Shown piece after piece: positions 26,821 to 44,852 of a stretch of 64,000 nucleotides of DNA. The notes below the pieces were generated by a model. That model was given only the letters and a program-made list of their open reading frames with translations. It was not told where the DNA came from and searched no databases. The translations under genes were made by a program, and so were the position numbers. Within the stretch, counting starts at the first letter, position 1, and the number at the start of each line of letters is the position of its first letter. The stretch lies in NCBI GenBank assembly GCA_963826715.1, contig CAWGYA010000008.1:224001-288000 (forward strand). Reading direction: 5' to 3'. The stretch comes from Candidatus Bathyarchaeota archaeon. Its GTDB lineage: Archaea > Thermoproteota > Bathyarchaeia > Bathyarchaeales > Bathycorpusculaceae.

Positions 26821-27851
26821 CGGAATACAAAATATCCTTAATTCCAGGCGATGGCATCGGACCAGAACTCTCCGAAGCAACGTTGAAAGTTCTAAATGCG
26901 ACTGAAAAAAAATTCGGGTTAAAATTCAAAATAATTGAAGCTCCAGCGGGCGACATCGCTCTTGAAACACTCGGAGCCGCCCTACCCGCAGACACAGTAG
27001 AGAAAGTCAAGGAATCCCACGCTTGCCTTAAGGGGCCCGTTGGTGAATCCGCAGCTGATGTCATCGTTAAACTCCGGTATATGTTCGACCTGTACGCGAA
27101 CCTTCGCCCAATAAAGACTTATCCCGGCGTTGAAGCAGCACGCCAAAACATCGACATGTACTTTGTCAGAGAAAACACTGAAGATGTCTACAAAGGCTTA
27201 GAATTCACTCTAGGTAACGATACCACAATATGCTTACGTGTTATCACACGTCAAAACTGCACGCGTATCGCACATAAAGCATTCCAAGTGGCACGCCTAA
27301 GGAACGGCAAAAAGAAAGTCACTGCTATTCACAAAGCAAATGTAATGCGTATTACTGACGGATTGTTCCGAGATGTATGCCGTGAAGTCTCAAAAGGCTA
27401 CCCAGACATCACATTCAATGAACTCTACGTTGACGCGGCATCCATGCGCCTGATCAAAGAACCGGAATCCTTTGACGTTTTCTGCACCTGTAACATGTTC
27501 GGTGACATCCTTAGTGATGAAGCTGCACAACTAGTCGGCGGCTTAGGTATGGCGCCAGGAGCAAATGTAGGGGATAACTTCGGCTTATTCGAACCTATCC
27601 ACGGTAGTGCACCTAATCGAACAGGCAAACATACCGCCAATCCATTGTCCATGGTGTTATCTGCTAAGCTGATGCTGGAATGGCTAGGCGAAAAATATAA
27701 CGACCAAAAATGCCTTAAAGCAGCAGTAGCCATAGAGAAGGGTGTAGTCTACGTACTGGAAAACCATCAGGGTGTTCCAGACTTAGGCGGAAAAACCACG
27801 ACCGTGGGAATGGCTGAGGCAATTGCTGCAGCCATGCCTTCGGCTAAATAG
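26817..27851 (+). CDS. leuB: 3-isopropylmalate dehydrogenase
   Basis: GDGIGPE, RENTE, NMFGDILSD, EPIHGSAP; leu operon context. Confidence 0.9.
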   Translation: MTEYKISLIPGDGIGPELSEATLKVLNATEKKFGLKFKIIEAPAGDIALETLGAALPADTVEKVKESHACLKGPVGESAADVIVKLRYMFDLYANLRPIKTYPGVEAARQNIDMYFVRENTEDVYKGLEFTLGNDTTICLRVITRQNCTRIAHKAFQVARLRNGKKKVTAIHKANVMRITDGLFRDVCREVSKGYPDITFNELYVDAASMRLIKEPESFDVFCTCNMFGDILSDEAAQLVGGLGMAPGANVGDNFGLFEPIHGSAPNRTGKHTANPLSMVLSAKLMLEWLGEKYNDQKCLKAAVAIEKGVVYVLENHQGVPDLGGKTTTVGMAEAIAAAMPSAK

Positions 27852-27861
27852 TCGTGTCAAT

Positions 27862-29376
27862 ATGACTGAAACAAGAACCATCCGTATATTAGATACAACT
27901 TTAAGAGACGGGGAACAGACCCCGGGTGTTTCTTTAACCGCTGAAGACAAAATCGAGATTGCTCGCCAACTAAGCAAACTAGGCGTCGACATTATCGAAG
28001 CAGGTTTTCCAAGCTCCTCAGAGGGCGAACGCAAAGTTGTCAAAGAAATTGTTAAAGCAGGTTTAACATCACAAATATGCGCTTTATCTCGTTGCACACG
28101 CAAAGATATCGACGCCGCACTGGAATGTAATGTCGATTTGGTTCACGTTTTCATCCCCACTTCACCAGTGCAAATGAAACACGCCGTCAACATGACTCCC
28201 GAACAGGTCTTGACATCAGCTGTTGAATCCATCGAATATGTCAAGGCGCACGGCGTAAAATGCGAATTCTCACCTATGGACGCTACTCGCACAGAATTGC
28301 AGTTCCTAAAAGAAATCTGCAGAGCCGCACAGAAAGCAGGTATGGACAGCTTAAACGTGCCAGATACTGTCGGGATTATGATACCTAAAACTATGGCTGA
28401 ACTTATTACTGAAATAAAAACCGCTGTAGCTGTTCCAATAAGCATTCACTGTCACAACGATTTTGGTTTAGCAGTCGCCAACAGTTTAGCGGCAGTTGAA
28501 GCAGGCGCCTCTCAAGTTCATACCGCAGTAAACGGATTAGGTGAACGGGCAGGCAATGCAGCGCTCGAAGAAATCGTAACCACGTTACATGTGGTTTATA
28601 ATTATAAAACAAACGTAAACACCCGCTTGCTTTACAGCACTAGCCGCATGGTTGCTTCGCTCACTGGAATAAACGTGCAGGTCAACAAAGCCATAGTTGG
28701 CGAAAACGCCTTTGCTCACGAATCAGGTATCCACACCCGCGGAGTAACCGAGCAGCCCTTGACTTTTGAGCCTATTAGCCCTGAACTTGTTGGCAGAACT
28801 CGTAAACTAGTAGCAGGTAAACTTGCTGGTACTCGCGGCATCAAAGCAGAACTCGAAGAAATCGATATCCATCCCAACGAAGAACAACTAAACGAAATCG
28901 TCAAACGTGTTAAAGATTTAGGCGATAAAGGCAAAATGGTCACCGATGCTGACCTCATAGCGTTGACCTCTGCAGTTATGGGTGAAGTAGTTGGGGAACA
29001 GAAAATTGTTGACCTCTGTGACATGGCTGTAATAACGGGTATTAAAGTCATCCCAACCGCGTCAGTGCGCCTAACACTGGATGGAAAAGAATACGTTGCC
29101 GCCGAAACTGGCGTAGGACCAGTTGATGCAGTACTAAAAGCCATCCAGAAATTAACCAGTAACCTTGAGAAAATTCGTCTCAGTGAATATAGGTTAGAAG
29201 CTATAACAGGTGGTTCTAATGCGGTGGCAGAAGTTGTTATCAAAGTTGAAGATGAAAATGGTAACATTGTCTCTGCGAGAGCTGCCCGAGAAGACATCGT
29301 TATGGCATCTGTTGAAGCAATGATAAACGGTATAAACAAGTGTTTGCTAAAGAATCGCCAGGGCAAAAAATTATGA
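27862..29376 (+). CDS. leuA: 2-isopropylmalate synthase
   Basis: DTTLRDGEQ, NVPDTVG, HCHND, GLGERAGN, regulatory GVGPVDA; start at ATG 27862. Confidence 0.85.
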   Translation: MTETRTIRILDTTLRDGEQTPGVSLTAEDKIEIARQLSKLGVDIIEAGFPSSSEGERKVVKEIVKAGLTSQICALSRCTRKDIDAALECNVDLVHVFIPTSPVQMKHAVNMTPEQVLTSAVESIEYVKAHGVKCEFSPMDATRTELQFLKEICRAAQKAGMDSLNVPDTVGIMIPKTMAELITEIKTAVAVPISIHCHNDFGLAVANSLAAVEAGASQVHTAVNGLGERAGNAALEEIVTTLHVVYNYKTNVNTRLLYSTSRMVASLTGINVQVNKAIVGENAFAHESGIHTRGVTEQPLTFEPISPELVGRTRKLVAGKLAGTRGIKAELEEIDIHPNEEQLNEIVKRVKDLGDKGKMVTDADLIALTSAVMGEVVGEQKIVDLCDMAVITGIKVIPTASVRLTLDGKEYVAAETGVGPVDAVLKAIQKLTSNLEKIRLSEYRLEAITGGSNAVAEVVIKVEDENGNIVSARAAREDIVMASVEAMINGINKCLLKNRQGKKL

Positions 29377-31113: not shown

Positions 31114-31746
31114 TTAGACACCTAGACGTTTTACGTTATTTGCATAGAAATTATCGAGGATTTTGTGTCCTTCAGGGTGAATTTCGTTTTCAATAGATAT
31201 GCATTCGGGATGGAATTGCACGCCGAAAAAAAGTTTTGTTTTATGTTTGACGGCTTCGACTTCGCAACTTGCGGAGTCAGCCAACAAATTAAAGCCTGCG
31301 GCGTTGAGACTGTCTTTAAGGACGTAGTCTTTATTGCATTCTGCCAGGGGAACAGCTTGACCTCTTTTGAATCTGGAAAGTATGTCTCCTGTTTGGATTA
31401 TGTTAACCTGCTCGAAACGGTTAAGGATCGGTTGGGGCAGTGCTTCTGTTTTGGAGCCGAATGCCATGCAAAGTAGCTGATGCCCAAAATCTATTCCTAA
31501 AAGGGGTACTGTACAGGTTTTGATGAGATGTGTTACTCCGCCAAATTTTGCCTTATCTTGAGGGTTTGTTATTCGGGCGTCTGAACCGCTGAGAACTACC
31601 GCAGCGATATCACCTACCATTTGGTAGTCCTTCTCGATTTTATTATAGGGAACTATTTTGCAGATAGTAAAGTTGCTTAATGCGTCATACAATTGGTTGA
31701 TTTTTGAGCTTTCAATGTAGCAATTTACGAGTAAAGTCTTGGTCAT
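31114..31746 (-). CDS. class I glutamine amidotransferase-like protein lacking the catalytic Cys
   Basis: VLSGS, PLLGIDFGHQ (normally GICFGHQ), GVQFHPE. Confidence 0.85.
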   Translation of the reverse strand: MTKTLLVNCYIESSKINQLYDALSNFTICKIVPYNKIEKDYQMVGDIAAVVLSGSDARITNPQDKAKFGGVTHLIKTCTVPLLGIDFGHQLLCMAFGSKTEALPQPILNRFEQVNIIQTGDILSRFKRGQAVPLAECNKDYVLKDSLNAAGFNLLADSASCEVEAVKHKTKLFFGVQFHPECISIENEIHPEGHKILDNFYANNVKRLGV

Positions 31747-31748
31747 AT

Positions 31749-32621
31749 CTACTCCTCAGTTGACTGAAGCATCTTATACATCACGTCATAGCTTTTGCCA
31801 TATTCGCTGTCCGCCTTCGCCATTTTTGCTCTCAGCTTATTCATACGCTCAACTATAGTGGCTGAATCTTTTTTCTTCATCAACTCCAGCCATTCTTCGG
31901 CTTTGGTTATGAATAGTTCTTCGATTTTTTCCAGCCCAGCCAGTTTGGTTTGAACGTTGGCATAGAGGTCAGGGGTCTCTAAAGCGGTGGCTTCCGCCAG
32001 AGTGAAGAGCATGCGGTAAGTTGTGCCTGCAAGTCGTTTCGATTCGGGGAAGAAAGGCTGATCTATGAGGGTCTCGCATGCTGCTAACCCTAGAAAATGA
32101 GGAAACCCCAAGACAATTGACATAAGGTCATCGTGTTTTTGCGGCGACATTATGAAGACGTGAGCGTTTTCCTTCTCCAACCATTTTTTAAACTCCTCTG
32201 CATATGCCTCTTCTTGAGGGTTTGTAGGAGTCAGCACATACGCTTTGTGGGCAACACCTCTGCTTCCCGGACCAAAAACGGGGTGTGTTCCCAAAACCAG
32301 TGCTTTCTTGAGGTATCTATGCATTATGTTAACTGGATATTCTTTAATTGAGCAGACATCCATTATTGGTTGCCCTTGATGAATTGAAGTTGCAATTTTT
32401 TTAATAACTTCCTCAAAAGAGGAAATAGATACACAGATCATGACGCGGTCAGCACCTGATACTGCGGTTGGGAAATCTGCTGTTTCGACGCCCAACTCGT
32501 CTTTTAATTTCGCAAGCTTATCTGGATTTCGATCGGCGAGTACCACGACGTCGCCTTTCTCTTTGCACCATTTTGCGAACCAAACGCCCATTTTTCCCGC
32601 GCCTAAAACCGCGGTTTTCAT
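31749..32621 (-). CDS. tyrA: prephenate dehydrogenase
   Basis: GAGKMG Rossmann fold, DVCSIK, THPVFGP, HD..MS. Confidence 0.93.
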   Translation of the reverse strand: MKTAVLGAGKMGVWFAKWCKEKGDVVVLADRNPDKLAKLKDELGVETADFPTAVSGADRVMICVSISSFEEVIKKIATSIHQGQPIMDVCSIKEYPVNIMHRYLKKALVLGTHPVFGPGSRGVAHKAYVLTPTNPQEEAYAEEFKKWLEKENAHVFIMSPQKHDDLMSIVLGFPHFLGLAACETLIDQPFFPESKRLAGTTYRMLFTLAEATALETPDLYANVQTKLAGLEKIEELFITKAEEWLELMKKKDSATIVERMNKLRAKMAKADSEYGKSYDVMYKMLQSTEE

Positions 32622-33715
32622 TTAGCTGCCTCACTGATTTTATCGAGCGCTACCCTGATTTGGTCGTCAGGCGCGGTTAGACTTATGCGAAAGTGTTCAC
32701 GGTAGTCACCAAAAGATGTTCCTGGTGCAACAGCTACTCCTTTGTCGAGAAGGTCTAAAGTAAATTTTTCGCTGTCTAAACCTTTACGTTTGGGGAAGAC
32801 ATAGAAGGGAGCATCTGGTGCAGTAAATTGGAAGCCTCCCGCCGAAAGTTTGGCAGATGCAAGATCGGCGCGTTGCTTGTATTTTGCTTTTATGTTAGCC
32901 GCGATTTGTTCGCGCAACTCAAGACCTTTAAGTGCGGCGTCTTGGATAAAGACCGGAACATTGTTGAAGGTGATTTGGTTGAGTTTAGTGACTTTATCAA
33001 CTAAGGGTTTGTTAGCAACAAGGTAACCGATTCGCCAACCTGTCATCGTGAAGGTTTTGGAAAAGCCGTTTGAAAGAATATGTTTGCACTCATTATCATA
33101 ATCAAGGATACTCTTCGTTTCAACAAAGCTAATTGCACCATAAACTTCGTCAGAGAGCACGGTGACGCCTTTTCTATTAGCTATTTCCACTATCCCTTCA
33201 AGAGTTTGCGTGTCCATGACCTTGCTAGTAGGATTGTTAGGGTTATTTAGAATAATCATTTTGGTATCGCTGTCAATAATCCCTTCAAGCTTGTCTAGAT
33301 CTACTTTCCAACCTGTTTCCATCTCGGTTCGAAGCAGCTTAACATTAGCTCCAAAGCTTTTAGCAATTAAGTCATAAGCGGTCCAATAAGGCGTTGGGAT
33401 GATCACATTGCCGCCGTTTTTCAGCAACAGAAACATGGTGGAGAAAATTGCCCATTTTGAGCCGGGAGTTATGACAACGTTTTCTGTTTTGACGCCGTGA
33501 ACTTCAGCGATGGCTTTACGAAGCGATAGTTCGCCGTAAGAAGATGAGTATTTGGTTTTTCCAGCCTGCATGGATGCGTAGGCAGCTTGCACGATTTCAG
33601 GAGGCGTATTCATGTCTGGATCACCGAGGTTTAAACGAATTATCTTTTTTCCTTCACTTTCAAGCTTTAGGGCTTTCTCGTTTATTTCATACAACATTAG
33701 ATGACTACTCTCCAT
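32618..33715 (-). CDS. class I/II PLP aminotransferase (probable aromatic aminotransferase)
   Basis: GDPD, NNPNNPT, SDEVY, FSKTFTMTGWRIG. Confidence 0.9.
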   Translation of the reverse strand: MESSHLMLYEINEKALKLESEGKKIIRLNLGDPDMNTPPEIVQAAYASMQAGKTKYSSSYGELSLRKAIAEVHGVKTENVVITPGSKWAIFSTMFLLLKNGGNVIIPTPYWTAYDLIAKSFGANVKLLRTEMETGWKVDLDKLEGIIDSDTKMIILNNPNNPTSKVMDTQTLEGIVEIANRKGVTVLSDEVYGAISFVETKSILDYDNECKHILSNGFSKTFTMTGWRIGYLVANKPLVDKVTKLNQITFNNVPVFIQDAALKGLELREQIAANIKAKYKQRADLASAKLSAGGFQFTAPDAPFYVFPKRKGLDSEKFTLDLLDKGVAVAPGTSFGDYREHFRISLTAPDDQIRVALDKISEAAK

Positions 33716-33724
33716 TTAGAATTC

Positions 33725-33985
33725 TTAGTGTTGAACTGTGCTGCACATATTAACTATTTCTCGGTAGATCTGCTCAATTCTGTCAGGGTCTAACTTGAGT
33801 AGTTCAGCTCTTTCTCGGACGCGGCTGAAAACTTCATTTTCCCGAGAGATGTCGTGGACAGCTTTACCCTGCTGCTTCTTAACTTCTCCGATGGCGCGGC
33901 AGATTTTTACTCGTAAAACAATATCATGTAGGATTTGATCGTCGACTGCATCGACTTTTTCACGCAGATTTTCTAAGTCACCCAT
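33725..33985 (-). CDS. aroQ: chorismate mutase (AroQ type)
   Basis: LREKVDAVD, R..I...IGEVK, D.SRE..V. Confidence 0.9.
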   Translation of the reverse strand: MGDLENLREKVDAVDDQILHDIVLRVKICRAIGEVKKQQGKAVHDISRENEVFSRVRERAELLKLDPDRIEQIYREIVNMCSTVQH

Positions 33986-33989
33986 TTTT

Positions 33990-35102
33990 TCAACGCTCCT
34001 TTAGTACCTTTGGGATTTCACCTGAACGTATGAGATGATCCGCTAAGGTTAATGCTACTACAGCTTCTATAGCAGGCACCGCCTTGGGCACCACACAAGG
34101 GTCATGTCTGCCCTTAACACTTATACAGGTATTCTCCATAGAAGCCAAGTTAACCGTTTTCTGTTCCTTGGTAATCGAAGGTGTAGGCTTGATTGCCACA
34201 CGTATCACAATAGGCATACCGGTGGATAATCCACCCAAGATGCCACCTGCATTCTCAGTTGCGGTAACAATTTTATTTCCTTTAATGAGGAAAGAATCGT
34301 TATTTTCTGAGCCCCTCATCTCTGCAACTTTGAAACCAGATCCGAATTCAACACCCTTCACTGCGGGAACACAAAAAAGTGCCTTCGCCAAATCCGCATC
34401 TAAAGCATCAAACAATGGCTCGCCGACGCCAGCAGGCATGTTGAGTGCAACGCATTCGATTACTCCTCCTAAGCTATCCCCTGCCTCTTTGGCTGCAACT
34501 ATGGCTTCCTCCATCTTTTCTGCGCATTCCAAGTCAGGACATCTTGTTGATGCTGAGTTACGGTTTTTACGAATTTCTGAAACATGAAAGTCCTTGTGGC
34601 TCTTGATGGGCCCTATGGCTTGAGTGTAAGCCAGAACGTCTATGTTGTATCTGCCTAGCAGTTTCTTGGCGATGACGCCTGCCATGATAATTGCCACGGT
34701 TACGCGACCGCTAAAGCGTCCGCCTCCACGGTAATCGTTATAGCCACCGTAGCGGATTTTTGCAGGGTAATCGGAGTGAGCGGGTCTTGGAAGGTCTTTG
34801 ATAGCTTCGTAATCACTGGATTTTGTTTCCTTATTCTCTACGATAATTGTAATTGGTGCGCCTGTTGTGTAGCCTTTAAAGACTCCAGTGAGAATTTTGG
34901 GGATGTCTTTCTCAACCCTTGCCGAGACTATTTTGGGGTCCTCTGGTATACGTCTATCGAGTTCATTTTGGAAATCCGTTTGAGCAAGCGGTAGCCCCGC
35001 GGGGCAGCCATCCACGACGACACCAACAACTTCACCATGGCTTTCTCCGATACTAACTACCGTAAATTCTTTACCTAACGAGTTTCCCGCCAACAACTTC
35101 AA
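33990..35102 (-). CDS. aroC: chorismate synthase
   Basis: GESHG, PRPAHSD, RGGGRFSGR, KPTPSI, GRHDPC. Confidence 0.97.
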   Translation of the reverse strand: MKLLAGNSLGKEFTVVSIGESHGEVVGVVVDGCPAGLPLAQTDFQNELDRRIPEDPKIVSARVEKDIPKILTGVFKGYTTGAPITIIVENKETKSSDYEAIKDLPRPAHSDYPAKIRYGGYNDYRGGGRFSGRVTVAIIMAGVIAKKLLGRYNIDVLAYTQAIGPIKSHKDFHVSEIRKNRNSASTRCPDLECAEKMEEAIVAAKEAGDSLGGVIECVALNMPAGVGEPLFDALDADLAKALFCVPAVKGVEFGSGFKVAEMRGSENNDSFLIKGNKIVTATENAGGILGGLSTGMPIVIRVAIKPTPSITKEQKTVNLASMENTCISVKGRHDPCVVPKAVPAIEAVVALTLADHLIRSGEIPKVLKER

Positions 35103-36366
35103 CTCCTAACTGCTTTAGATGATGGAAGAACTGCGGATAAGACTTTCTGATGCACTCCGAGTGGGCAATTACGGTTTCGAATCTTGCCCCCAGTGCAGCC
35201 ACGGCGGCTGCCATTGCTATGCGATGGTCGTTATGTGGGTTGATAATTGCTCCATGTAGCGGTGCACCTTTAATGATCAAACCGTCCTCGGTTATGACTA
35301 CTTGTGCACCCATCCGCGTAAGTGCCTCATAAATTGAGGCAAGTCTGTCGGATTCTTTGATTCGAAGCCGCTTTGCGCCCGAGATATGCGAAGTTCCTTC
35401 CGCATAACAAGCCAAAACTGCTATTACCGGTACTAGATCCGGGATGTTTTTAGCGTCTACATCTATGGGTTTTAGGGATTTACCTGTTCCTTCGATTTCG
35501 ACGCTGCCATGGCATACTTTACCCTCAATGCCCATGCGTTTGAGAATTGTGAGAATAGCTTTGTCACCCTGCACTGTCGAAACGTCGAGATTATCAATGG
35601 TGACCTTTGATGCTGTTATAGCTGAGGCGGATAGAATAAAAGCTGCTGAGGAGAAATCGCCTGGAACTTTGTCGTCGGCTGCCTTGTATGATTGGTTAGA
35701 AGGTATGGTTATGAAGTTTTCTTCCACGCCCACAGTGATAGCATGTTTAGAAAGAACTGCTTCAGTCATTTTTACATAATCTGCTGATTCAAGAGGTGAA
35801 GAAAGCGAGATTTCGGTTTCTGTCTGAGCGAGAGGACAAGCAAACATCAAACCTGAGATGAATTGTGAGCTGATGTTTCCGGGAATCTGGGTTCTACCAC
35901 CAACAATTCCACCGCCGGCCAAAAACACCGCGTCAACATCTCCGACTTTCCCCACGTGTGCTTTAGCGCCAAGATCTTTGAGGCTCTGAAGCAACGGTTC
36001 CACGGGGCGGCGTTCAAGTGAACCCCGAAACAATAACGTTGAAGGTCCATCTGCCAACGCCGCAATGGGAATCATGAATCGCAAGGTGGCGCCTGATTCG
36101 CCGCAGTCGATTGCCTGGCTTGCGGCTTTAAGAGGTTTTGCTCCAGAGATTGCCCAGCAACCGTCTTCCGTCTTAACCTCTGCGTTCAATGCCATGACCG
36201 CCCGTAGCGCCGCTTCGGAATCCTCGGATAATAGGGGGTTTGAAATTTTGGATGTACCCTCTGAGAGGGCAGAGGCAATAACCATGCGCTGTGTATAGGA
36301 CTTAGATGAAGGTGCACAGATCTCTCCGCTGATAAACGGTGTTTTATTGATAGTTACGCTTACCAT
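35071..36366 (-). CDS. aroA: EPSP synthase
   Basis: SKSYTQR, GESGATLRF, SSQF, KESDR, DHRIAM, KSYPQF. Confidence 0.97.
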   Translation of the reverse strand: MVSVTINKTPFISGEICAPSSKSYTQRMVIASALSEGTSKISNPLLSEDSEAALRAVMALNAEVKTEDGCWAISGAKPLKAASQAIDCGESGATLRFMIPIAALADGPSTLLFRGSLERRPVEPLLQSLKDLGAKAHVGKVGDVDAVFLAGGGIVGGRTQIPGNISSQFISGLMFACPLAQTETEISLSSPLESADYVKMTEAVLSKHAITVGVEENFITIPSNQSYKAADDKVPGDFSSAAFILSASAITASKVTIDNLDVSTVQGDKAILTILKRMGIEGKVCHGSVEIEGTGKSLKPIDVDAKNIPDLVPVIAVLACYAEGTSHISGAKRLRIKESDRLASIYEALTRMGAQVVITEDGLIIKGAPLHGAIINPHNDHRIAMAAAVAALGARFETVIAHSECIRKSYPQFFHHLKQLGVEVVGGKLVR

Positions 36367-36368
36367 TG

Positions 36369-37238
36369 TTAGAGCACCTTAGCTTTTTCGTCGTTAAAAT
36401 ACGCGGTTAAAATTTCACCTTCGTACTTCGATAGTGCAGCTTTGACTTGATCCACTTTGTCTTTAGGAGATATTGCGGTTATGGCGGGTCCTTTGCCGCA
36501 AAGTCCAGCTGCTACTGCGCCTGCAGCCAAGGCGTCAACTGCGATAGTTGTGTTTAGGTTAGAAGCCGCTGAGTAAACAAGTCCGTTAAGTGTGAGCGCC
36601 TCCCAGAACTTATCCGCCATAGCCTGCTCAAAAGCCATTTCTACCAGCGGCTTCACAGTTGCCAACCTCTTCACGTTCGAGTTTGCTGTGTAGGCTTTCT
36701 GAGGTGGAATGTGAAATAGTACCAAAAAGCCCTGAGGCAACTCAATCTGTTTAATGATTGTGCAGTTTTGGTTATTTGTTACTACCGCACCGCCAAAGTA
36801 GGAAGCGCAAGCATCGTCAAACGCACCTGTTATTGTAACTTTGGCTTCGAATGAGGCTTTTATTCCGAGTTTAATTATTTCTATGTCGCCGAGTTGTTTA
36901 TCAAGCGCAGCCATAGTGGCGAGTACTGTTGCGTTTGCAGCAGCACTGCTACTTTTAAGTCCTCGCGCGATAGGAATGTTTGATTTGGTTTTAATTTTAG
37001 CCCCGAAACATTTCTCCAACCCGAAGTGTTTGATGACGTTTGCAGCTGTTTTTTCGACAAGTACCGTGTTTTCTTTAGGATCAGATATTATTTCAACTTC
37101 AATAAAACCTGGTTCGTTAGTCAGCTTCACATCTGCTCTTGTCCATAGATCTACGCCGAATGCGGCACCCTTGCCCAGGGCAATTGCGTTCACGATTGTC
37201 GCTGCACCATGAGCCACTGCAGATGCTTTTCCTACCAC
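36369..37238 (-). CDS. aroK: archaeal GHMP-family shikimate kinase
   Basis: TIVNAIALGKG, IPIARGLKSSSAA, ITGAFDDA. Confidence 0.94.
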   Translation of the reverse strand: MVGKASAVAHGAATIVNAIALGKGAAFGVDLWTRADVKLTNEPGFIEVEIISDPKENTVLVEKTAANVIKHFGLEKCFGAKIKTKSNIPIARGLKSSSAAANATVLATMAALDKQLGDIEIIKLGIKASFEAKVTITGAFDDACASYFGGAVVTNNQNCTIIKQIELPQGFLVLFHIPPQKAYTANSNVKRLATVKPLVEMAFEQAMADKFWEALTLNGLVYSAASNLNTTIAVDALAAGAVAAGLCGKGPAITAISPKDKVDQVKAALSKYEGEILTAYFNDEKAKVL

Positions 37239-37241
37239 TGG

Positions 37242-38102
37242 TTACACCTTCTGCTGTAAGTGATTAAGCGCAGCCTTCCTCATAACTTCAACAGGCGCTG
37301 ATCTTCCTGTCCAGATTTCAAAAGAGGCTACACCCTGATAAATCAACATCTCCACTCCGCTCACCACTTTGGCGCCTGCAGCTCGTGCGTCTTTTGTTAA
37401 CTTGGTTTCTAATGGATTGTAAACTATGTCCATGACGGCGAGGTTAGAACGAATCAGTTTAGGAGCCACCGGACTTACGTCAGATTTCGGTTTCATGCCT
37501 ATGGATGTGGCGTTGATCAGAATGTCGGAGTCTTGAAGTTGATTTTGGACATCTCGTTGCTCAAGCGAGCCGTAAGCAATTTTTTTGTTAAATGTGTTCT
37601 CTAGCAGTTTAGCTAACTCTTGAGCTTGCTTGACCGTACGATTTAGCACGGCAAGTTCATCAGCTTCCTTTGCCACGCTGTAAGCTATTGCTCGTGCAGC
37701 ACCTCCAGCGCCCAAAAGCAGAACTTTTCTTCCTTTTAGTTCAACACCATTTTCCTTAAGTGCTTTCATTGCACCAACCCCGTCGGTGTTAAAGCCAAAC
37801 AACATGTTTTCCTTGTTGAGGATTGTGTTAACGGATTTTATTATTTGCGCGGACAAGTCGATACGGTCCAGGTGCGCTATTACTTTGCTTTTGTGGGGCA
37901 TTGTGACGTTTAAGCCGCGAATGTTTAGTGCCTTTGCGCCGTTAATTGCATCAGCTACACCTTTTGCTTTGACTTTGAAAGCTAAAAACACGTAATCGAG
38001 TCCCAACTCAACGAAGGCTGCATTATGAATCACCGGACTTAGTGTATGCTCGATAGGGTCACCAATAACACCGCAAACTCGAGTTTTCCCCGACACCTTC
38101 AC
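37242..38102 (-). CDS. aroE: shikimate dehydrogenase
   Basis: SPVIHN, NVTMPHK, NTDG, GAGGAA, DIVYNP. Confidence 0.96.
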   Translation of the reverse strand: MKVSGKTRVCGVIGDPIEHTLSPVIHNAAFVELGLDYVFLAFKVKAKGVADAINGAKALNIRGLNVTMPHKSKVIAHLDRIDLSAQIIKSVNTILNKENMLFGFNTDGVGAMKALKENGVELKGRKVLLLGAGGAARAIAYSVAKEADELAVLNRTVKQAQELAKLLENTFNKKIAYGSLEQRDVQNQLQDSDILINATSIGMKPKSDVSPVAPKLIRSNLAVMDIVYNPLETKLTKDARAAGAKVVSGVEMLIYQGVASFEIWTGRSAPVEVMRKAALNHLQQKV

Positions 38103-38785
38103 GGCAACAACCCCAGCATTTTATATGCCAACTTCATTTCTACGATACGAATTTGTCCAACTGCAGTTTCGTTGCCGCCCTCCAGAGAGGCAAAGGTAAA
38201 GAAGGCACCAAACGCAGGGGAGAGCAAACGTGAAGTTTTTCCATGTTCTCCCATGCAAAAACATACAAGTTTAGCCTTGGCGGAGGCAAACGAAACAAAG
38301 CTTAGGATAGGGAGATTGTCTTCAATACGTTTGGCTGTTAGGACTATTTTGCAGACTGAGGCACCCCTGGCGATTTGCTCATCAAGAATGTGTTCCAAAG
38401 CAGAGACTGATAGGATACCATCGAATTTATGATAGGAAATAATGGGTTTAGCTCCTAAAGCTTTTATTTTGTTGACAGTTTCATCGCACATTTGGCTTGT
38501 AAAGTCCACATCAATGTATTGAAAACCGTTTTGGGCAGCGTTAAGAAGAGTATTCTGACGTTCAACATCAGAACCAGAGAAATAGCCTTTTTCGCTAAGG
38601 AGTTTACAAGTAGCGATAAGAGGGATTTTTGTTGTCGCTGTGAGTTCGGAGAGATCCTGCGCTTCCTCGAGAAGATCCAAGCGCACTTCGATTATATCAG
38701 CTTGGGCGCATTCCGCCTGTTCGATTAGAGTCTTTCCTTCTTTTTCAGTTTTGGGGAGAATCGAAACACAGATTCTCATGCTCAC
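38099..38785 (-). CDS. aroD: 3-dehydroquinate dehydratase type I
   Basis: IEVRLD, ISYH, CKIV, MGEHGKTSR, GQ. Confidence 0.93.
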   Translation of the reverse strand: MSMRICVSILPKTEKEGKTLIEQAECAQADIIEVRLDLLEEAQDLSELTATTKIPLIATCKLLSEKGYFSGSDVERQNTLLNAAQNGFQYIDVDFTSQMCDETVNKIKALGAKPIISYHKFDGILSVSALEHILDEQIARGASVCKIVLTAKRIEDNLPILSFVSFASAKAKLVCFCMGEHGKTSRLLSPAFGAFFTFASLEGGNETAVGQIRIVEMKLAYKMLGLLP

Positions 38786-39813
38786 TTTTCAATCACCGTT
38801 TCATCAGGCACCGATATTCCGAAGTGTCTGCCACCCTTCGCTGCCAAATGCACCACTACTTCATCGCCTGGTTTAAGTTCTGTAACTGGCTTGGAGGCAT
38901 CAGGGGTCACGACACGAATGGTTTCTGCATTTTGCAGAATCACCTTTATGGTTTTCTCGGCTACTTGCGCCTCGACAAGTATTAGGGGGCGGATTTCTAT
39001 TTTTATTCGACCCACATTAGCTTTGCGGGTTCTGCCCTCCCTGTTAACAATTATGACTTCGTCTCCTGCTTTGAATTCTTGGAGGTAACGTGTAGTCTGG
39101 AGATTACCCAATGTATACATTGACAAAGAACCAGCGTTCACTCGGAAGGGTCGCGATGCCACGTAAGGGTTCTCGTTAACTTCAGCTTCAACGAGAAACA
39201 AACCTGCACTTTGGCTGCCAACAAGCATGCCTTCGCCACTGATCATCATATCGCAAGTGTCTACGCAAACCCGTGCACCTGTACTTATTGGTTTAATTGA
39301 AATGATCTTTGCGACTGCCATTTCGAGTTTTAATGCCTCAGGTTTGACAATAGCAATAGTCTTGAAAATTTCTTCAGGGTCAGATGTCTTTAATAATACC
39401 CCATCAGTCCCAAGCTCGAGGGTTTCAATTGCCACTTTTGCCTCTTCTGCATTGGCTACTTCAGCTATTAATTTACTTGTTTTTTTAATTCTGGCAATTA
39501 AATTTTCCAAAGGGATAACACGCCAATTTGCACAACCAATAATCAAGTAACGAACACCTAATTCAGCAACTTTAACAGCTAAATTTTCAGTTTGTTTGTC
39601 AACAATGCAGAGCCTAAAAACAGCGTTGTTAATCTCTTTGCCCTCAAGATTTTCTGGTTGTAGACGTTTAATAGTAGTTGATTCATTGGTTTGGAAAAAA
39701 GTGATTTTATCACCTTCGACAACGGCGTCACAATAGGGAGCCACGATTGATAGAGTAGAAGCCCTTTCTTGCTCCGAGACTGTAGAAGGTATTTCTATCC
39801 AAAGGGTCTTCAT
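38782..39813 (-). CDS. aroB': 3-dehydroquinate synthase II (archaeal)
   Basis: WRVIPLENLIA, RVCVDT, RPFRVNAG, LQNAETI, RHFG. Confidence 0.95.
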   Translation of the reverse strand: MKTLWIEIPSTVSEQERASTLSIVAPYCDAVVEGDKITFFQTNESTTIKRLQPENLEGKEINNAVFRLCIVDKQTENLAVKVAELGVRYLIIGCANWRVIPLENLIARIKKTSKLIAEVANAEEAKVAIETLELGTDGVLLKTSDPEEIFKTIAIVKPEALKLEMAVAKIISIKPISTGARVCVDTCDMMISGEGMLVGSQSAGLFLVEAEVNENPYVASRPFRVNAGSLSMYTLGNLQTTRYLQEFKAGDEVIIVNREGRTRKANVGRIKIEIRPLILVEAQVAEKTIKVILQNAETIRVVTPDASKPVTELKPGDEVVVHLAAKGGRHFGISVPDETVIEK

Positions 39814-40601
39814 CGTTTATCTCCGAGAATTTTTTGCGCCTGCTCAACCGAGGCGTTTTCGTGAACTATGGAGGAGAGGGCCTTTACCATGAGGGTGGGG
39901 TTATCACATTGGAAAACGTTTCGACCAATAGAAAGCCCTGCTGCACCTGCCTTGATTGCATCTAATGTAGTTTCAAGAACTTCCACGGGGGATTTGCATT
40001 TGGGTCCACCTGCAATAACAATGGGCACAGGGCAGCTTTCGATTACAACTTTGAAGCTCTCTATGTTACCGGTGTAGTTTGTTTTTATAATGTCTGCGCC
40101 AAGTTCTGCTCCTATTCGAGCGGCATGAGCAACAACAGTGGGGTCGTGTTCACTTTGAATTCGAGGACCTCGCGGATACATCATCGCTAATAGAGGTAGC
40201 CCGTAGTGTTCACATTCTTCGCTAACTTTACCTAGGTTCGCAAGCATCTTATCTTCGTCCTGCGCGCCTATGTTCACATGGACGCTGACAGCGTCAGCTC
40301 CGAGGCGGAGAGCTTCTCCTACGCTGCAAACCTGTACTTTAGAATTGAGATTTGGTGCGAGATTTGACATACCTGATAGCATAACGATTAATCCAGCGCC
40401 ATCCACATCGATGAGTTTTGCAATGCCCTTATGGACTAGAATAGCATCGGCTTTGCCTTTAATGAGCTGGTTAGTAATATTTTGCATATTAGTTATGCCT
40501 TGGACGGGCCCTATTGTTACGCCATGATCCATGGGTACAATGACTGTGCGGTTATCTTTTTGCATAAGTTTTTTTAGTCTACGGGTTTTGCCTACGTTCA
40601 T
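39810..40601 (-). CDS. aroA': 2-amino-3,7-dideoxy-D-threo-hept-6-ulosonate (ADH) synthase
   Basis: PMDHG, AMMYPRG, ELGADIIKT, IAGG, GRNVFQ; adjacent to DHQ synthase II. Confidence 0.92.
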   Translation of the reverse strand: MNVGKTRRLKKLMQKDNRTVIVPMDHGVTIGPVQGITNMQNITNQLIKGKADAILVHKGIAKLIDVDGAGLIVMLSGMSNLAPNLNSKVQVCSVGEALRLGADAVSVHVNIGAQDEDKMLANLGKVSEECEHYGLPLLAMMYPRGPRIQSEHDPTVVAHAARIGAELGADIIKTNYTGNIESFKVVIESCPVPIVIAGGPKCKSPVEVLETTLDAIKAGAAGLSIGRNVFQCDNPTLMVKALSSIVHENASVEQAQKILGDKR

Positions 40602-40614
40602 GTGTCTTCCTCGT

Positions 40615-41859
40615 TTAGTTTGTCTTTAGCGCATTTTTTATTAATTTTAAAGCTTTCTCTTTTTCGTTCCAATCTATAAATAACAATATACTTGAAGTAA
40701 TAGTCAAGATGCCTGAAATGTTTATGCCGTTAACGTTCAAGTCCTCGCTTATTCGACCGATTATACCATGAGTTTTCTCCAAACCAACACCGCTTGTTTT
40801 GATAAACACCAAGTCCTTCTTAACGGCCATAGCGATTGTTTCTTTGTTGTTTATTGTTATTTCGTGTATTTGGTTAAAGAGATTATTGATTGTTTTCTCT
40901 TGTGGCACATAGAGGATTATCGAGTTAGTGTTCATCGACATACCCAAAAGCATGGAGTTTTCTTTGACTTTCTCTACCAGCTGTGTGATAACCTGAGGAT
41001 TAGCTGATAATCCATCCCCAACAACAGTGATTTCAGCAACTGGCATAGGATGGGCAATTTCAGCGTCAAGTTCCGAGGCTAATCCACCTTTAATTAGGGT
41101 TCCTTCTTTGCCAAGATCACCATAGGCTGAATTCATAACTTTCACATCAATGTTTTCGGGTTTGTATTTGAGAGCCTTGCTATGGATGAACTTTGCGCCT
41201 GAATCCGCTAAACCCACAAGTGTGTTAACGTTGATTTCTGATAGTCTTTGGGGTGTACCGACGATTTTTGGGTCACCAGACATTATGCCATCTGCATCGG
41301 TTACAAGGACTACTTGGTCGGCATTTAGTCCCTTGGCCAAGAGGAAGGCTGTGGTGTCGCTTCCACCTCTGCCAAGGGTGGTAATTTTGCCACTTTTTGT
41401 TTTGCCCACGAACCCTGGGATGACAGGTATTAATCCTTTTTCTACTAGGGGGAGGATGCATTCATTGATGTTTTCTGCGCATTCTTGTAACAGCGGGTTG
41501 GCGTTTTGGAAGGCTTCGTCAGTTATGATGGGCCATTTGCAGTCCATTGGATCGAAGTAGCATGCGGCCACTCCGTTATTGCGCAATGCGGTTGCAAAGA
41601 TACGCACGCTAGTGCGTTCACCCATAGAAAGAATGTCATCTAAATCATGTTTTTCCAGTTTACCATTCGAAGTATTTTTTGCTGTAGTCATAAGGACATC
41701 AGTGGTTTTGCCCATAGCTGAGACCACGACAGTTACTTTGGTGCCTTTTTTGGCTTCATTCACTACTGCCATTACAGCACGTAAAAGACGTTCATGATCG
41801 GATAGACTGGATCCCCCGAATTTAACAACAATTTTACGTTCAGAGAGTTGTTTTGCCAT
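40615..41859 (-). CDS. lysC: aspartate kinase with C-terminal ACT domains
   Basis: VKFGGSS, VVSAMG, TLGRGGSDTTA, TDADG...DP. Confidence 0.93.
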   Translation of the reverse strand: MAKQLSERKIVVKFGGSSLSDHERLLRAVMAVVNEAKKGTKVTVVVSAMGKTTDVLMTTAKNTSNGKLEKHDLDDILSMGERTSVRIFATALRNNGVAACYFDPMDCKWPIITDEAFQNANPLLQECAENINECILPLVEKGLIPVIPGFVGKTKSGKITTLGRGGSDTTAFLLAKGLNADQVVLVTDADGIMSGDPKIVGTPQRLSEINVNTLVGLADSGAKFIHSKALKYKPENIDVKVMNSAYGDLGKEGTLIKGGLASELDAEIAHPMPVAEITVVGDGLSANPQVITQLVEKVKENSMLLGMSMNTNSIILYVPQEKTINNLFNQIHEITINNKETIAMAVKKDLVFIKTSGVGLEKTHGIIGRISEDLNVNGINISGILTITSSILLFIDWNEKEKALKLIKNALKTN

Positions 41860-41880
41860 TTTGTGTTACACCCTTGTTTT

Positions 41881-41918
41881 GCCCAGAACCGCTCTTGAAA
41901 AAATTTTCAGTTCTGGGC
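41881..41918 (-). promoter_or_regulatory. hairpin enclosing a U6 tract, immediately after the leader-peptide stop
   Basis: Minus strand GCCCAGAAC-TGAAAATTTTTTCA-AGAGCG-GTTCTGGGC: perfect 9-bp outer stem plus inner AU stem. Confidence 0.7.
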
Positions 41919-42008
41919 TTATGGAAAATATTCGTTATAATAAAAGACGTAGTCGAAGCTACGGAACAAAATTGCAGTACCAGCATCTTTTCCATTTGCA
42001 ATTAGCAT
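41919..42008 (-). CDS. putative Phe/Tyr-rich leader peptide, 29 aa (not in ORF track)
   Basis: MLIANGKDAGTAILFRSFDYVFYYNEYFP*; BRE/TATA-like CGAAACGC-TTATAT at ~42058-42045 upstream; lies 5' of the aromatic operon. Confidence 0.72.
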   Translation of the reverse strand: MLIANGKDAGTAILFRSFDYVFYYNEYFP

Positions 42009-42209
42009 TGCTTCGAACCTTTGGAATCACTCATATACCAAAAAATATAAGCGTTTCGGATTTAAGCTAAACAATAAGAAGTTAACTCTGGTTCTTAAGA
42101 AAATATGATCCCCTTATTTCTGCGGGGGACGACGTAGTGGAGTTGAGGTAATGGGTTACCAATATTATCACTCGATGAGGTTTAATTTACAAACAATAAT
42201 TGGTGCAAA

Positions 42210-42905
42210 TTACCTTTCGATTTTTATTATCTGAGGTAGCTTCCCGGCTGTTCCAACTTGTCCCTTGTAAATAATCAAGACACCTTCAACTCCATCAATT
42301 GCTAATGCTCTTCTGATCCCCGCTTCAATCCCCACCTCAACATCTCCTGTGACAACATTACCTACTGCAGTCGCCGCTGCATCAGCTAAACTGGCGTTTT
42401 TGCAGAAAACCGTAGCTGCCTCCGCTTGACCAAAGCTAAAAGCGTGACTAAAACATCCTGAGCTGGTAGCGACGGCAATTGGGAACTCTGTTAAGCGGAA
42501 ACCGAAGCGTCTTGAGAGTGGTTCTTCGCCCATGGCTACAGCAATGTCGATAGATTGTTTTGATTGTGCCATGATTTCACCGCCATCCTCCACAACCGCA
42601 ACTTTGCAATTTGTTTTTAGCATATCCGCAACTGCTAAGTCGGCTATAGCTCCAGCAACTGCCGCCATCGGGCCCACGTCTGCTTGCTCTGCTGCTTGAG
42701 CCATAAGTTTTGCAACTAGTGGCGATTCAGGAGGCGTTACAGGTTTAAAAGTATGCAGAAATTTTTTGTTCCCTTGAGCATAAAGTTCTAGTTCTGCATA
42801 ATTATGGGTGATAGATGCCTTAGCGACTTCTATGGCTTGATGGCTGTCAGAAATTATGGTGCATTGAGATTCTTTTAAAATAAAACTTTTCTTAAGCAGA
42901 TTCAA
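42210..42905 (-). CDS. UPF0280 / ApbE-like protein (COG2122)
   Basis: GPMAAVAGAIA, EDGGEI, ATSSG..SH.FSFG.A, ADAAATAVGN; start moved to TTG 42905. Confidence 0.9.
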   Translation of the reverse strand: MNLLKKSFILKESQCTIISDSHQAIEVAKASITHNYAELELYAQGNKKFLHTFKPVTPPESPLVAKLMAQAAEQADVGPMAAVAGAIADLAVADMLKTNCKVAVVEDGGEIMAQSKQSIDIAVAMGEEPLSRRFGFRLTEFPIAVATSSGCFSHAFSFGQAEAATVFCKNASLADAAATAVGNVVTGDVEVGIEAGIRRALAIDGVEGVLIIYKGQVGTAGKLPQIIKIER

Positions 42906-42907
42906 TG

Positions 42908-43345
42908 TCAACTTTTCTTTACCTTGCTGTTTACAGAGGTGTCGAACCCATTGGTTTTGATTGACTTTATGGCGCGGGCAGGGCAAGCGTCCACGCAGAT
43001 ACTACATGAACTACCGAGACATTTTTCCTTATCAAAGTTGATTGAAGCATCTTTATCTGTTCTTATGGCTTCCACAGGACAAAGGGCCACACAACTACCG
43101 CAGCTAAAACAACTCTCATAATCTACCTCTATCAGTTTGGGCACGGCTACAGTAACGCCGCGTTTTCGGAAAGCTTCAACTATTTTATCGAGGAATTCAT
43201 CAGGGACTTCGGCTAGAATCTCCCCACCTTTTGAATTAATCTGAGCAGACAGAATTGCGATTGGCACCTTGTATTCGATAATTATTTGTGATGCAATGGG
43301 CTCTGCTACTTGTTCTTCGTTAAATCGGATAAGAATTCTCCCCAT
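42908..43345 (-). CDS. NIL-domain ferredoxin (MA1822/MJ0099-like homocysteine synthesis partner)
   Basis: N-terminal NIL-like domain, CFSCGSCVALCP and CLGSSCSICVDACP. Confidence 0.88.
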   Translation of the reverse strand: MGRILIRFNEEQVAEPIASQIIIEYKVPIAILSAQINSKGGEILAEVPDEFLDKIVEAFRKRGVTVAVPKLIEVDYESCFSCGSCVALCPVEAIRTDKDASINFDKEKCLGSSCSICVDACPARAIKSIKTNGFDTSVNSKVKKS

Positions 43346-43349
43346 ATCA

Positions 43350-44852
43350 TTACCTTCCTAAAAGTTTAGCTACGTCTTCAGCAGTAACAATTCCTAACAC
43401 TTTCTTTTCGATGTCCACCACGGGTAACGCAGAAATGCAATGTTGCCCCATCCGCTTTGAAGCAATTTCAAGAGGCTCATCGGGTTTGGCTGTAAAGACT
43501 TTGTGGGTTTCGATATCTGCTAAGGCTTTTTTGCCTTCTGCCATGGCGCGAGTTATATCCCATGAGGTTACAATGCCCCGAAGTTTGCAATCACCATCCA
43601 CTACGACAATATGGTTAACAGATTTTGTTACTATACGCCGTGCAATGACGTGGATTTCTTCATCTTCAGTACAAGTGACTGCAGGATGCATTACATTAAC
43701 GACGAAGGGGATTTCTTCAGTTTGCCGCATGGGCTTAAAAACTGTGCTATTTGGCAGTCGCTCAATGGGGGGGGTTAATGTGAAGGTGCCTTCTTCAATC
43801 CATGATTTGAGTGTAGCGGAAACCTTCTTCGCCATCTTTATGCTTGATAACGAGCTAACGCGAACTTTTTTGCCATTCACGTTGATGCTGCCTGATTTGA
43901 GTTCTTTGTAACTAACTTGCCCAAACTTGGGGCGATCACGCCTCGGCACGCTGTAATCAACTACGTCGGTTAAAATTTCGCTATCGCGAATAGCGGTTTT
44001 TTTGGCTAGTCCTAAATTGAGAATTGGAATGGGAATACCCAACCCTACATAGAGGGAGGTACCATACCCTTTGAAAGAAGCCCCCCGCAAAAACTCACTT
44101 GACATCTGCTTTGCGTCTCCCTTCACCATTAAAGTACCGTTTAGGTTTTTGGGGCTATGCTGCGTACCTTCCCCGATGACATAACCCTGTCCACCACCAA
44201 GAAAGATTCGGGTACCCATTCCTATGGTTTCATAATCAGGGTCGTTCATGAGCGGGTTTAATTCGCCTGCACCTGAGAAAGTGGCATTGCGGAATCTGGG
44301 AAGAAGTTTGCTCATATATGTATAGATGATTTCGTCGCTGCTATTTACTGCGCAATTATATCGTTGGTAGCAGTTGCGGAAATTGATAAGGTAAAACTGG
44401 TTTAAGTCATCTGAGGTTAAGGTTGTTTTGATAGAGGTGCGTGGATAGCAATCGGTACCATAGGCATTGGCTCTTAGTTCGACTTCTCTTCCTGCGACTA
44501 AGTCCTCGATAATGTGTCCGCCACCGTATTCATAGGGTTGTTTCTCTGACATGTTGGTTGCGCCAATGAACAAATCCACTGCCGCACCGGGATGGCAGAC
44601 TTCGACGTCGTTTAACCAAGCATGATCAATCTTGATTGGAGGATCGGAGTGCCCAATGTTAATCACTGCACCTGAACTGCACATTGCGCCAAAAGTTCCA
44701 GTGGTAACCACATCTACTTCTTTGAAGGCAACTTCAATACCGCTGCTCTCAACGAGTTTTTTCATTTCTTCAGCGGTTAGAACTTGAGCGTCGCCTTTGC
44801 GAATTTTCTCATTAATCTCTTCGATGCTGCGGGTTTTCGCTTCCTTAGACAA
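43350..44852 (-). CDS. L-aspartate semialdehyde sulfurtransferase (DUF39 + CBS; MA1821/MJ0100-like)
   Basis: VDVVTTGTFGAMCSSGA, YGGGH, GTDCYPR, GEGTQH, C-terminal CBS pair. Confidence 0.93.
   Translation of the reverse strand: MSKEAKTRSIEEINEKIRKGDAQVLTAEEMKKLVESSGIEVAFKEVDVVTTGTFGAMCSSGAVINIGHSDPPIKIDHAWLNDVEVCHPGAAVDLFIGATNMSEKQPYEYGGGHIIEDLVAGREVELRANAYGTDCYPRTSIKTTLTSDDLNQFYLINFRNCYQRYNCAVNSSDEIIYTYMSKLLPRFRNATFSGAGELNPLMNDPDYETIGMGTRIFLGGGQGYVIGEGTQHSPKNLNGTLMVKGDAKQMSSEFLRGASFKGYGTSLYVGLGIPIPILNLGLAKKTAIRDSEILTDVVDYSVPRRDRPKFGQVSYKELKSGSINVNGKKVRVSSLSSIKMAKKVSATLKSWIEEGTFTLTPPIERLPNSTVFKPMRQTEEIPFVVNVMHPAVTCTEDEEIHVIARRIVTKSVNHIVVVDGDCKLRGIVTSWDITRAMAEGKKALADIETHKVFTAKPDEPLEIASKRMGQHCISALPVVDIEKKVLGIVTAEDVAKLLGR

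Follow-up and report, generated by a model that had tools for sequence, protein, structure and literature searches.

The window (the whole stretch of DNA analyzed here, 64,000 nucleotides from a Candidatus Bathyarchaeota archaeon) carries on its minus strand an operon for aromatic amino acid synthesis whose open reading frames overlap or are tightly packed. Its first gene (40615–41859, minus strand) encodes an aspartate kinase (NCBIfam NF005159, 384.5 bits, above the cut-off). The remaining genes (31749–40601, minus strand) encode, in the order given by NCBIfam, ADH synthase (aroA′), dehydroquinate synthase II (aroB′), the aroD and aroE products, an archaeal shikimate kinase, EPSP synthase (aroA), chorismate synthase (aroC), chorismate mutase, an aminotransferase, and prephenate dehydrogenase (tyrA); no trp genes were recognized by NCBIfam among the operon genes. 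The ADH synthase route begins from aspartate semialdehyde, so it makes sense that an aspartate kinase gene should head an aromatic operon. At the operon end, after tyrA, lies a class-I glutamine amidotransferase-like gene (31114–31746, minus strand) with weak GuaA/TrpG-type matches. The prephenate dehydratase gene pheA (PF00800; 29340–30185, plus strand) is outside the operon and convergent to it; it is preceded by a 517-aa ORF (27823–29376, plus strand) and an isopropylmalate/isocitrate-dehydrogenase-like gene, and from this neighborhood the Phe branch is seemingly transcribed with leucine-type genes. On the other side of the operon, and divided from it by the promoter described below, are three genes on the same strand (42210–42986, 42908–43345, and 43350–44852, all minus), which encode a PRK04334-type conserved hypothetical protein, a 4Fe-4S ferredoxin-domain protein, and a "methanogenesis marker 16"-like metalloprotein with CBS domains, respectively.

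The operon promoter appears to include a BRE/TATA-like element, CCGAAACGCTTATATTTT (42042–42059, minus strand), that is nearly unchanged in 29 of 30 same-genus loci, namely those that extend far enough upstream. The transcription start site presumably lies near 42020, as we assume from the usual archaeal TATA-to-start spacing. A search for RNA runs covering the locus turned up none. Between this element and the aspartate kinase gene is a minus-strand ORF (42008–41919) of 29 codons from its ATG, followed by TAA, which encodes the peptide MLIANGKDAGTAILFRSFDYVFYYNEYFP. On this prediction the ORF begins about 12 nt downstream of the transcription start, and in other lineages the corresponding ORF starts about 27 nt past the TATA element, so that by the same spacing rule those ORFs should be leaderless or nearly so. 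The stop codon of the ORF abuts an RNA hairpin (41881–41918, minus strand), and a Shine-Dalgarno-like GGGTG of the aspartate kinase gene (41869–41873, minus strand) lies 7 nt past it; a G-rich motif is found 1–14 nt past the hairpin in most of the 75 loci compared. The promoter motif and the hairpin motif each occur once in this genome, at this locus.

There are no aromatic residues in codons 1–14 of the leader ORF, and codons 15–29 include four Phe (codons 15, 18, 22, and 28) and four Tyr (codons 20, 23, 24, and 27); Trp is absent. The presumed sensing codons, 15 through 28, span 41925–41966 (minus strand). NCBIfam gene order, the positions of the promoter element (42059–42042) and of the aspartate kinase ATG (41859), and translation of the ORF all agree with a preliminary description of this DNA, which had reported a lysC-aro-tyrA operon without trp genes, a small ORF between a BRE/TATA-like element and the first operon gene, and this unequal distribution of Phe and Tyr. 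The exact leader peptide is absent from a collection of 15 billion proteins, and so the ORF has not been called as a gene there. Among 12,468 ATG-initiated ORFs of 20–45 aa in the six frames of this genome, 23 have eight Phe or Tyr residues in a 15-residue window. When 2,315 gene proxies in this genome were screened for an upstream ORF ending 15–125 nt before the gene start, 100 had such an ORF with at least five Phe, Tyr, or Trp residues in its last 14, 30 had one with at least six, and four, including the leader, had one with at least seven; the other three look like the ends of membrane-protein genes and were rejected as leaders. The composition is therefore rare in this genome as judged from its sequence, yet a single locus is unpersuasive, and it is conservation that decides.

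Orthologs of the aspartate kinase are present in 35 of the 36 other genomes of the genus and, at E ≤ 1e-90, in 218 of 401 genomes of the order. From these, 76 order-level loci were assembled: the window's own, the best 29 from the same genus, 11 and 20 chosen to represent other genera and families, and 15 from further searches, covering seven families (f1, f5, f6, f7, f10, f11, and f12). A leader was scored when an ORF ended 60–113 nt before the conserved Lys-Phe-Gly-Gly codons and had at least five Phe, Tyr, or Trp residues among its last 14. The preliminary description had proposed a search for a conserved Phe/Tyr-rich upstream ORF with synonymous variation before orthologous operons, and such an ORF is clearly present: it precedes the aspartate kinase/aro operon in 74 of the 76 loci and in all seven families, although these and the following counts overstate the number of independent cases since the genomes are related. 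The two exceptions are L041, with four aromatic residues, and L038, which is truncated by a contig end and in which the aromatic tail is still visible. Eighty named records comprised 29 identical to loci already examined and 51 new ones, and all 51 of the latter, further Bathyarchaeia records, have the leader (50 by script, and L157 by eye behind a masked run of N). Two of the named records, titled as Acidobacteria genera (L130 and L152), carry this archaeal aspartate kinase (70–76% identity), and their upstream 150 nt are identical to those of examined loci having the leader; these contigs are probably mis-binned or mislabeled.

Beyond the order, 62 of 151 genomes in other orders of the class have the aspartate kinase (E ≤ 1e-80), and 20 of their loci were examined. 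A tail in which at least six of the last 14 residues are aromatic occurs in 11 of these 20 (families f14, f16, f19, f28, f30, f31, and f33), two (L173 and L178) are borderline, and in the other seven of the 20 (five f26, one f35, and one f17) the aromatic leader is absent. Upstream of their aspartate kinase ortholog the f26 loci (L159–L162 and L169) instead carry another conserved small ORF, which begins Met-Gly-Asp/Gly-x-Leu/Ile-Phe-Gly-Asp-Gly/Phe-Val-Tyr, and their aspartate kinase frame is 50–90 codons longer; the small ORF may represent either a substitute regulatory ORF or an extension of the N terminus. In an alignment of the 30 same-genus loci, the leader ORF (41919–42008 in the window) always begins at the same ATG and ends at the hairpin, and its internal indels are all multiples of three, while the first ~14 codons vary freely. 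Between families the nucleotides cannot be aligned, yet the tails stay aromatic, and the frame and the architecture persist.

The last 14 residues of 75 leader peptides (11 to 33 residues long) are 29.3% Tyr, 25.6% Phe, and 1.7% Trp, and the preceding heads are 4.8% aromatic; in all 75 the last aromatic codon is 0–2 codons before the stop. The tails are U-rich (46%, with 21.5% in the heads), and the preliminary description had raised the possibility that TTT and TAT codons might arise from AT-richness alone. This is not so, since the enrichment is specific to the frame and exceeds that of shuffled sequence: Phe plus Tyr make up 54.5% of tail residues in frame, whereas the two alternative frames give 9.8% and 11.2%, and 300 shuffles of the tails give 20.1%, with a maximum of 23%. 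Three further residues that a merely U-rich element would be expected to produce, Leu, Ile, and Val, each account for at most 1.7% of tail residues. Both synonymous codons of each amino acid are used in the tails (TTT 148, TTC 119, TAT 217, and TAC 89). Across the leader span the +1 and +2 frames are open in only 22 and 7 of the 75 loci, respectively. Frameshift coupling of the leader to aspartate kinase was also considered; the frames required are open all the way from the tail to the aspartate kinase start in 38 of 75 loci (+1) and 11 of 75 (+2), and the idea was rejected because the open frame is not kept among close relatives (for example, L006 and L010).

The hairpin at the leader stop has an 11-bp stem (5′ arm 41908–41918, 3′ arm 41881–41891; −17.5 kcal/mol) and a 16-nt loop that contains an A-run and a T6 run (41898–41903). 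Of 75 leader stops, 71 have a hairpin that starts between −3 and +5 nt from the stop, has ΔG ≤ −13 kcal/mol, and spans no more than 60 nt; in this genome the control rate is about 2%, with 45 such hairpins at 2,318 gene stops and 33 at 1,500 stops of random small ORFs. The sequences of the arms differ completely from lineage to lineage. They are GCCCAGAAC and GTTCTGGGC in most of f1; f6 and f7 have a longer GCCCAG...CTGGGC stem, the low-identity f1 genera and f5, f10, f11, and f12 have purine-first GGAGAAG.../...CTTCTCC arms, and the other orders have yet other arms. In an alignment of 49 f1 sequences, pairing holds for 98.8% of the hairpin cells, substitutions lead to G-U, and double changes occur at two pairs; neither the pairing nor the covariation score was equaled in any of 500 shuffles, and slid controls gave 23–50% pairing. 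Substitutions compatible with G-U pairing speak for a structure in the RNA and against a palindrome in the DNA.

A second conserved stem lies upstream of the hairpin. Segment A, GGTTCGAAGC (42010–42019, minus strand), is at or near the transcript 5′ end just before the leader ATG and is conserved in the 49 aligned f1 loci; it is complementary to segment B, AGCTTCGAC (41952–41960, minus strand), which contains the Ser-Phe-Asp codons. RNAalifold pairs the two segments, with 97.2% of cells paired in the 49 loci and changes mostly to G-U, and in the low-identity f1 genera the second stem instead pairs N-terminal codons with Ser-Gly-Tyr codons. Pairing at this stem accounts for the nucleotide-level conservation of Ser-Phe-Asp/Gly/Glu and of the few non-aromatic residues. 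For each of three lineage sets RNAalifold placed a single hairpin past the stop and a single stem, A:B or its equivalent, farther upstream, and no mutually exclusive antiterminator (2:3) and terminator (3:4) helices were found in these sets. A search by eye for alternative partners of either hairpin arm turned up only matches of 4–6 bp, and the best Rfam match in 41000–43000 has E = 0.17.

Runs of T are common between the leader stop and the aspartate kinase start, where 41 of 75 loci have a run of at least five and 66 of 75 a run of at least four, compared with 17% and 40%, respectively, of control 60-nt upstream regions. The run of at least five is missing in the other 34 loci, including a subclade of the window's genus (L031–L035). 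The place of the tract also varies; it is in the loop (T5–7) in the window's genus, and in f14, f11, and part of f7 the hairpin is followed by U4–6, an arrangement that resembles a bacterial terminator. Hairpin-dependent termination would imply the opposite regulatory sign where the hairpin precedes the U-tract. An ortholog of the termination factor FttA/aCPSF1 is encoded in this genome (899 bits, above the cut-off). FttA is described as binding U-rich RNA and needing about 36 nt of nascent RNA, and a coupled ribosome as possibly excluding it (PMC11616081); termination in M. maripaludis is described as dependent on poly-U tracts and aCPSF1 (PMC10450193).

Taken as a comparative sequence argument, these features make it probable that the leader ORF is a ribosome-speed sensor of the supply of aromatic aminoacyl-tRNAs. 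Once translated, the leader would gauge the supply of aminoacylated tRNA-Phe and tRNA-Tyr, and in some lineages of tRNA-Trp as well, through the speed of the ribosome across the 7–10 aromatic codons packed into its last 14. Since the stop codon sits at the foot of the hairpin, the position of the ribosome would decide whether the hairpin forms. A ribosome covers roughly −12 to +15 nt around its P site. With the stop codon in its A site it would hold the 5′ arm in the mRNA channel and leave the loop and 3′ arm single-stranded, and when stalled on most of the aromatic codons it would leave the hairpin intact. The sign of regulation we infer from physiology: the folded hairpin would have to be the ON state because a biosynthetic operon needs negative feedback.

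What the hairpin might then control is a separate matter. We lean, with rather less than even confidence, toward premature termination of the U-tract/FttA type over a translational or stability read-out. The folded hairpin would shield the nascent transcript from termination, and a hairpin kept open would leave U-rich RNA (the Phe and Tyr codons, U-tracts in the loop or 3′ arm, and the U-run before the Shine-Dalgarno sequence) exposed to a hairpin-independent termination machinery (U-tract plus FttA/aCPSF1); such termination would precede ribosome loading at the aspartate kinase start. It is conceivable, though on balance doubtful, that Bathyarchaeia possess a true ribosome-mediated attenuator adapted to termination in archaea, consisting of the leader, an antiterminator hairpin, and U-rich RNA read by FttA/aCPSF1. 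Read as such an attenuator, the locus would require no terminator hairpin, and three elements (a leader of cognate codons, a hairpin at its stop, and U-rich RNA) might suffice, a proposition that we hold with the same reserve.

The mechanism of the classical leader attenuators of bacteria is well known, and the enterobacterial pheL-pheA, trpL, hisL, thrL, leuL, and ilvL systems share with the Bathyarchaeia locus a short leader ORF before a biosynthetic operon, codons for the end product at the end of the leader, variable residues without a regulatory role, and an RNA structure at or near the leader stop. By analogy, the sensing part appears to work like the classical leader peptides. The two differ in that the bacterial systems have 2:3 and 3:4 alternatives and the Bathyarchaeia leader has one stop-abutting hairpin, its U-tract is often inside the loop or absent, it would gauge two or three amino acids for a common pathway starting with aspartate kinase, and termination in the proposed model would be hairpin-independent (U-tract/FttA). 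The leader of cognate codons and the conserved ORF with an otherwise variable sequence are those of a classical attenuator; because the alternative terminator and antiterminator helices that define such attenuators were not found, the leader is better regarded as a variant than as a member of that class.

The nearest known system in layout is that of the mycobacterial polycysteine leaderless short ORFs, which are described as likewise being first-cistron ORFs (10.1101/834739) at the mRNA 5′ end with a tract of cognate codons, where a stalled ribosome alters downstream RNA structure and there is no classical terminator. They differ from the Bathyarchaeia leader in the position of the Shine-Dalgarno sequence, which here is outside the hairpin and is not consistently unmasked in modeling. 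In the tnaC-tnaA system, Rho is denied entry by a ribosome that is held at the stop of the leader; the signal there is free tryptophan, sensed by way of a specific nascent peptide, and the operon induced is catabolic. The Bathyarchaeia leader points instead to the sensing of tRNA charging, as its peptide sequence turns over and only the aromatic codon content is kept. The tnaC/Rho case is nonetheless nearest to the read-out proposed here, in that a ribosome at the end of the leader would decide the access of a termination factor to the RNA beside the stop; FttA is the archaeal functional counterpart of Rho (PMC11616081).

The same sensor could have a different output, in which the stalled ribosome and the hairpin act on aspartate kinase translation initiation or on mRNA stability and not on transcription; we regard this as a serious contender, although it too falls well short of an even chance. 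In one version, a ribosome parked on the U-rich tail would keep it from pairing with the A-rich start region of the aspartate kinase gene, a pairing that would be clamped by the hairpin, and in another the stalled ribosome and the hairpin would guard the mRNA from 5′-to-3′ decay, which would resemble the mycobacterial polycysteine ORFs, a precedent for an output of this kind (10.1101/834739). The layout suits such an output, since the hairpin ends 1–14 nt before the Shine-Dalgarno sequence in most of the 75 loci and the upstream ORF lies right at the 5′ end, preceded by little or no leader; the Shine-Dalgarno sequence is, however, outside the hairpin. In folding ensembles the aspartate kinase initiation region shares on average 5.8 pairs (median 4.9) with the tail, but base composition by itself predicts that U-rich and A-rich RNA will pair. 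When the footprint of a ribosome at the middle or last aromatic codon is masked, accessibility of the initiation region rises from 0.45 to 0.51–0.52 (0.46 at the first aromatic codon), a gain that is small, equal for a ribosome at the stop (0.515), and near zero in several lineages other than f1. Accessibility of the Shine-Dalgarno sequence itself shows no systematic change in ribosome-masked folding (0.35 free, 0.35–0.40 stalled, and 0.37 with the ribosome at the stop), and a switch based on its sequestration was rejected because no consistent change was obtained.

Other explanations dispense with amino acid sensing altogether. The leader ORF might be translated as a constitutive ribosome-loading device, acting through termination-reinitiation or 5′-end protection, with its aromatic codons otherwise caused. 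The folded hairpin would bring the stop near the aspartate kinase Shine-Dalgarno sequence, and leader genes have been proposed to raise downstream translation (PMC4833913); this is nevertheless improbable, as it leaves unexplained both a tail that is 55% Phe plus Tyr in every lineage despite sequence turnover and the restriction of the leader, within this genome, to a position ahead of the aromatic operon. We consider it quite improbable that the element is untranslated, its conserved features serving as an RNA motif or as the DNA operator of some transcription factor and the open frame being a by-product. Segments A and B and the hairpin arms are indeed inverted repeats, segment A is at the predicted transcription start, a usual site for archaeal repressors, and Ser-Phe-Asp is conserved at the nucleotide level. 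Against these stand a frame that is open from an invariant ATG to the hairpin stop in all loci, with only in-frame indels in its fast-changing head, the scarcity of open +1 and +2 frames (22 and 7 of 75), aromatic codons that persist where the nucleotides of different families cannot be aligned, and changes in the arms to G-U, which keep an RNA helix and break a DNA palindrome. That the peptide itself is the product, as a small aromatic peptide or the precursor of a modified one, seems highly improbable: the motifs Phe-Ser-Gly-Tyr and Ser-Phe-Gly/Asp-Tyr do recur across families, but they coincide with the RNA stems, the head is unconserved, the length ranges from 11 to 33 residues, no genes for modifying enzymes adjoin the leader, and in every case it is linked in cis to the aro operon and to the stop hairpin.

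Leader-peptide attenuation is a textbook mechanism of bacteria. Archaeal gene control has been described almost wholly in terms of promoter-bound factors, with initiation given as the only known target (PMC8448881), and no account of archaeal leader-peptide attenuation was found in the literature searched, which left out most subscription journals and supplements. If control by termination is correct, the Bathyarchaeia leader would be the first attenuation mechanism in Archaea and a direct regulatory use of archaeal transcription-translation coupling, placed at the aspartate kinase entry to the DKFP aromatic route. A leader conserved across the class would show that archaeal ribosomes also gauge amino acid supply, and it would offer a natural system for learning how the ribosome communicates with archaeal RNA polymerase and FttA. 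The leader also flags a class of unannotated small ORFs overlooked by genome annotation, and it points to an aspartate kinase dedicated to, and regulated with, aromatic synthesis.

The leader appears to be alone of its kind in this genome, where no Trp-rich ORF was found before trpE, no similar leader before the pheA transcription unit, and no second clear leader in a genome-wide screen for small ORFs rich in a single residue. Some other small ORFs outside the window came to light. Four intergenic ones (G000 C8:499286-499358, C8:1009231-1009300, C8:326802-326871, and C2:350591-350660), two of them identical, begin Met-Ile-Phe-Glu-Glu-Glu and continue with runs of Glu and Asp with Trp or Cys; these could represent acidic mini-proteins of one family, or else precursors of peptides. 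Another (G000 C8:1071471-1071555, plus strand) has eight Thr in 16 residues together with Ile, Val, and Ala and brings to mind a leader of the threonine type; about 600 nt separate it from the next long ORF.
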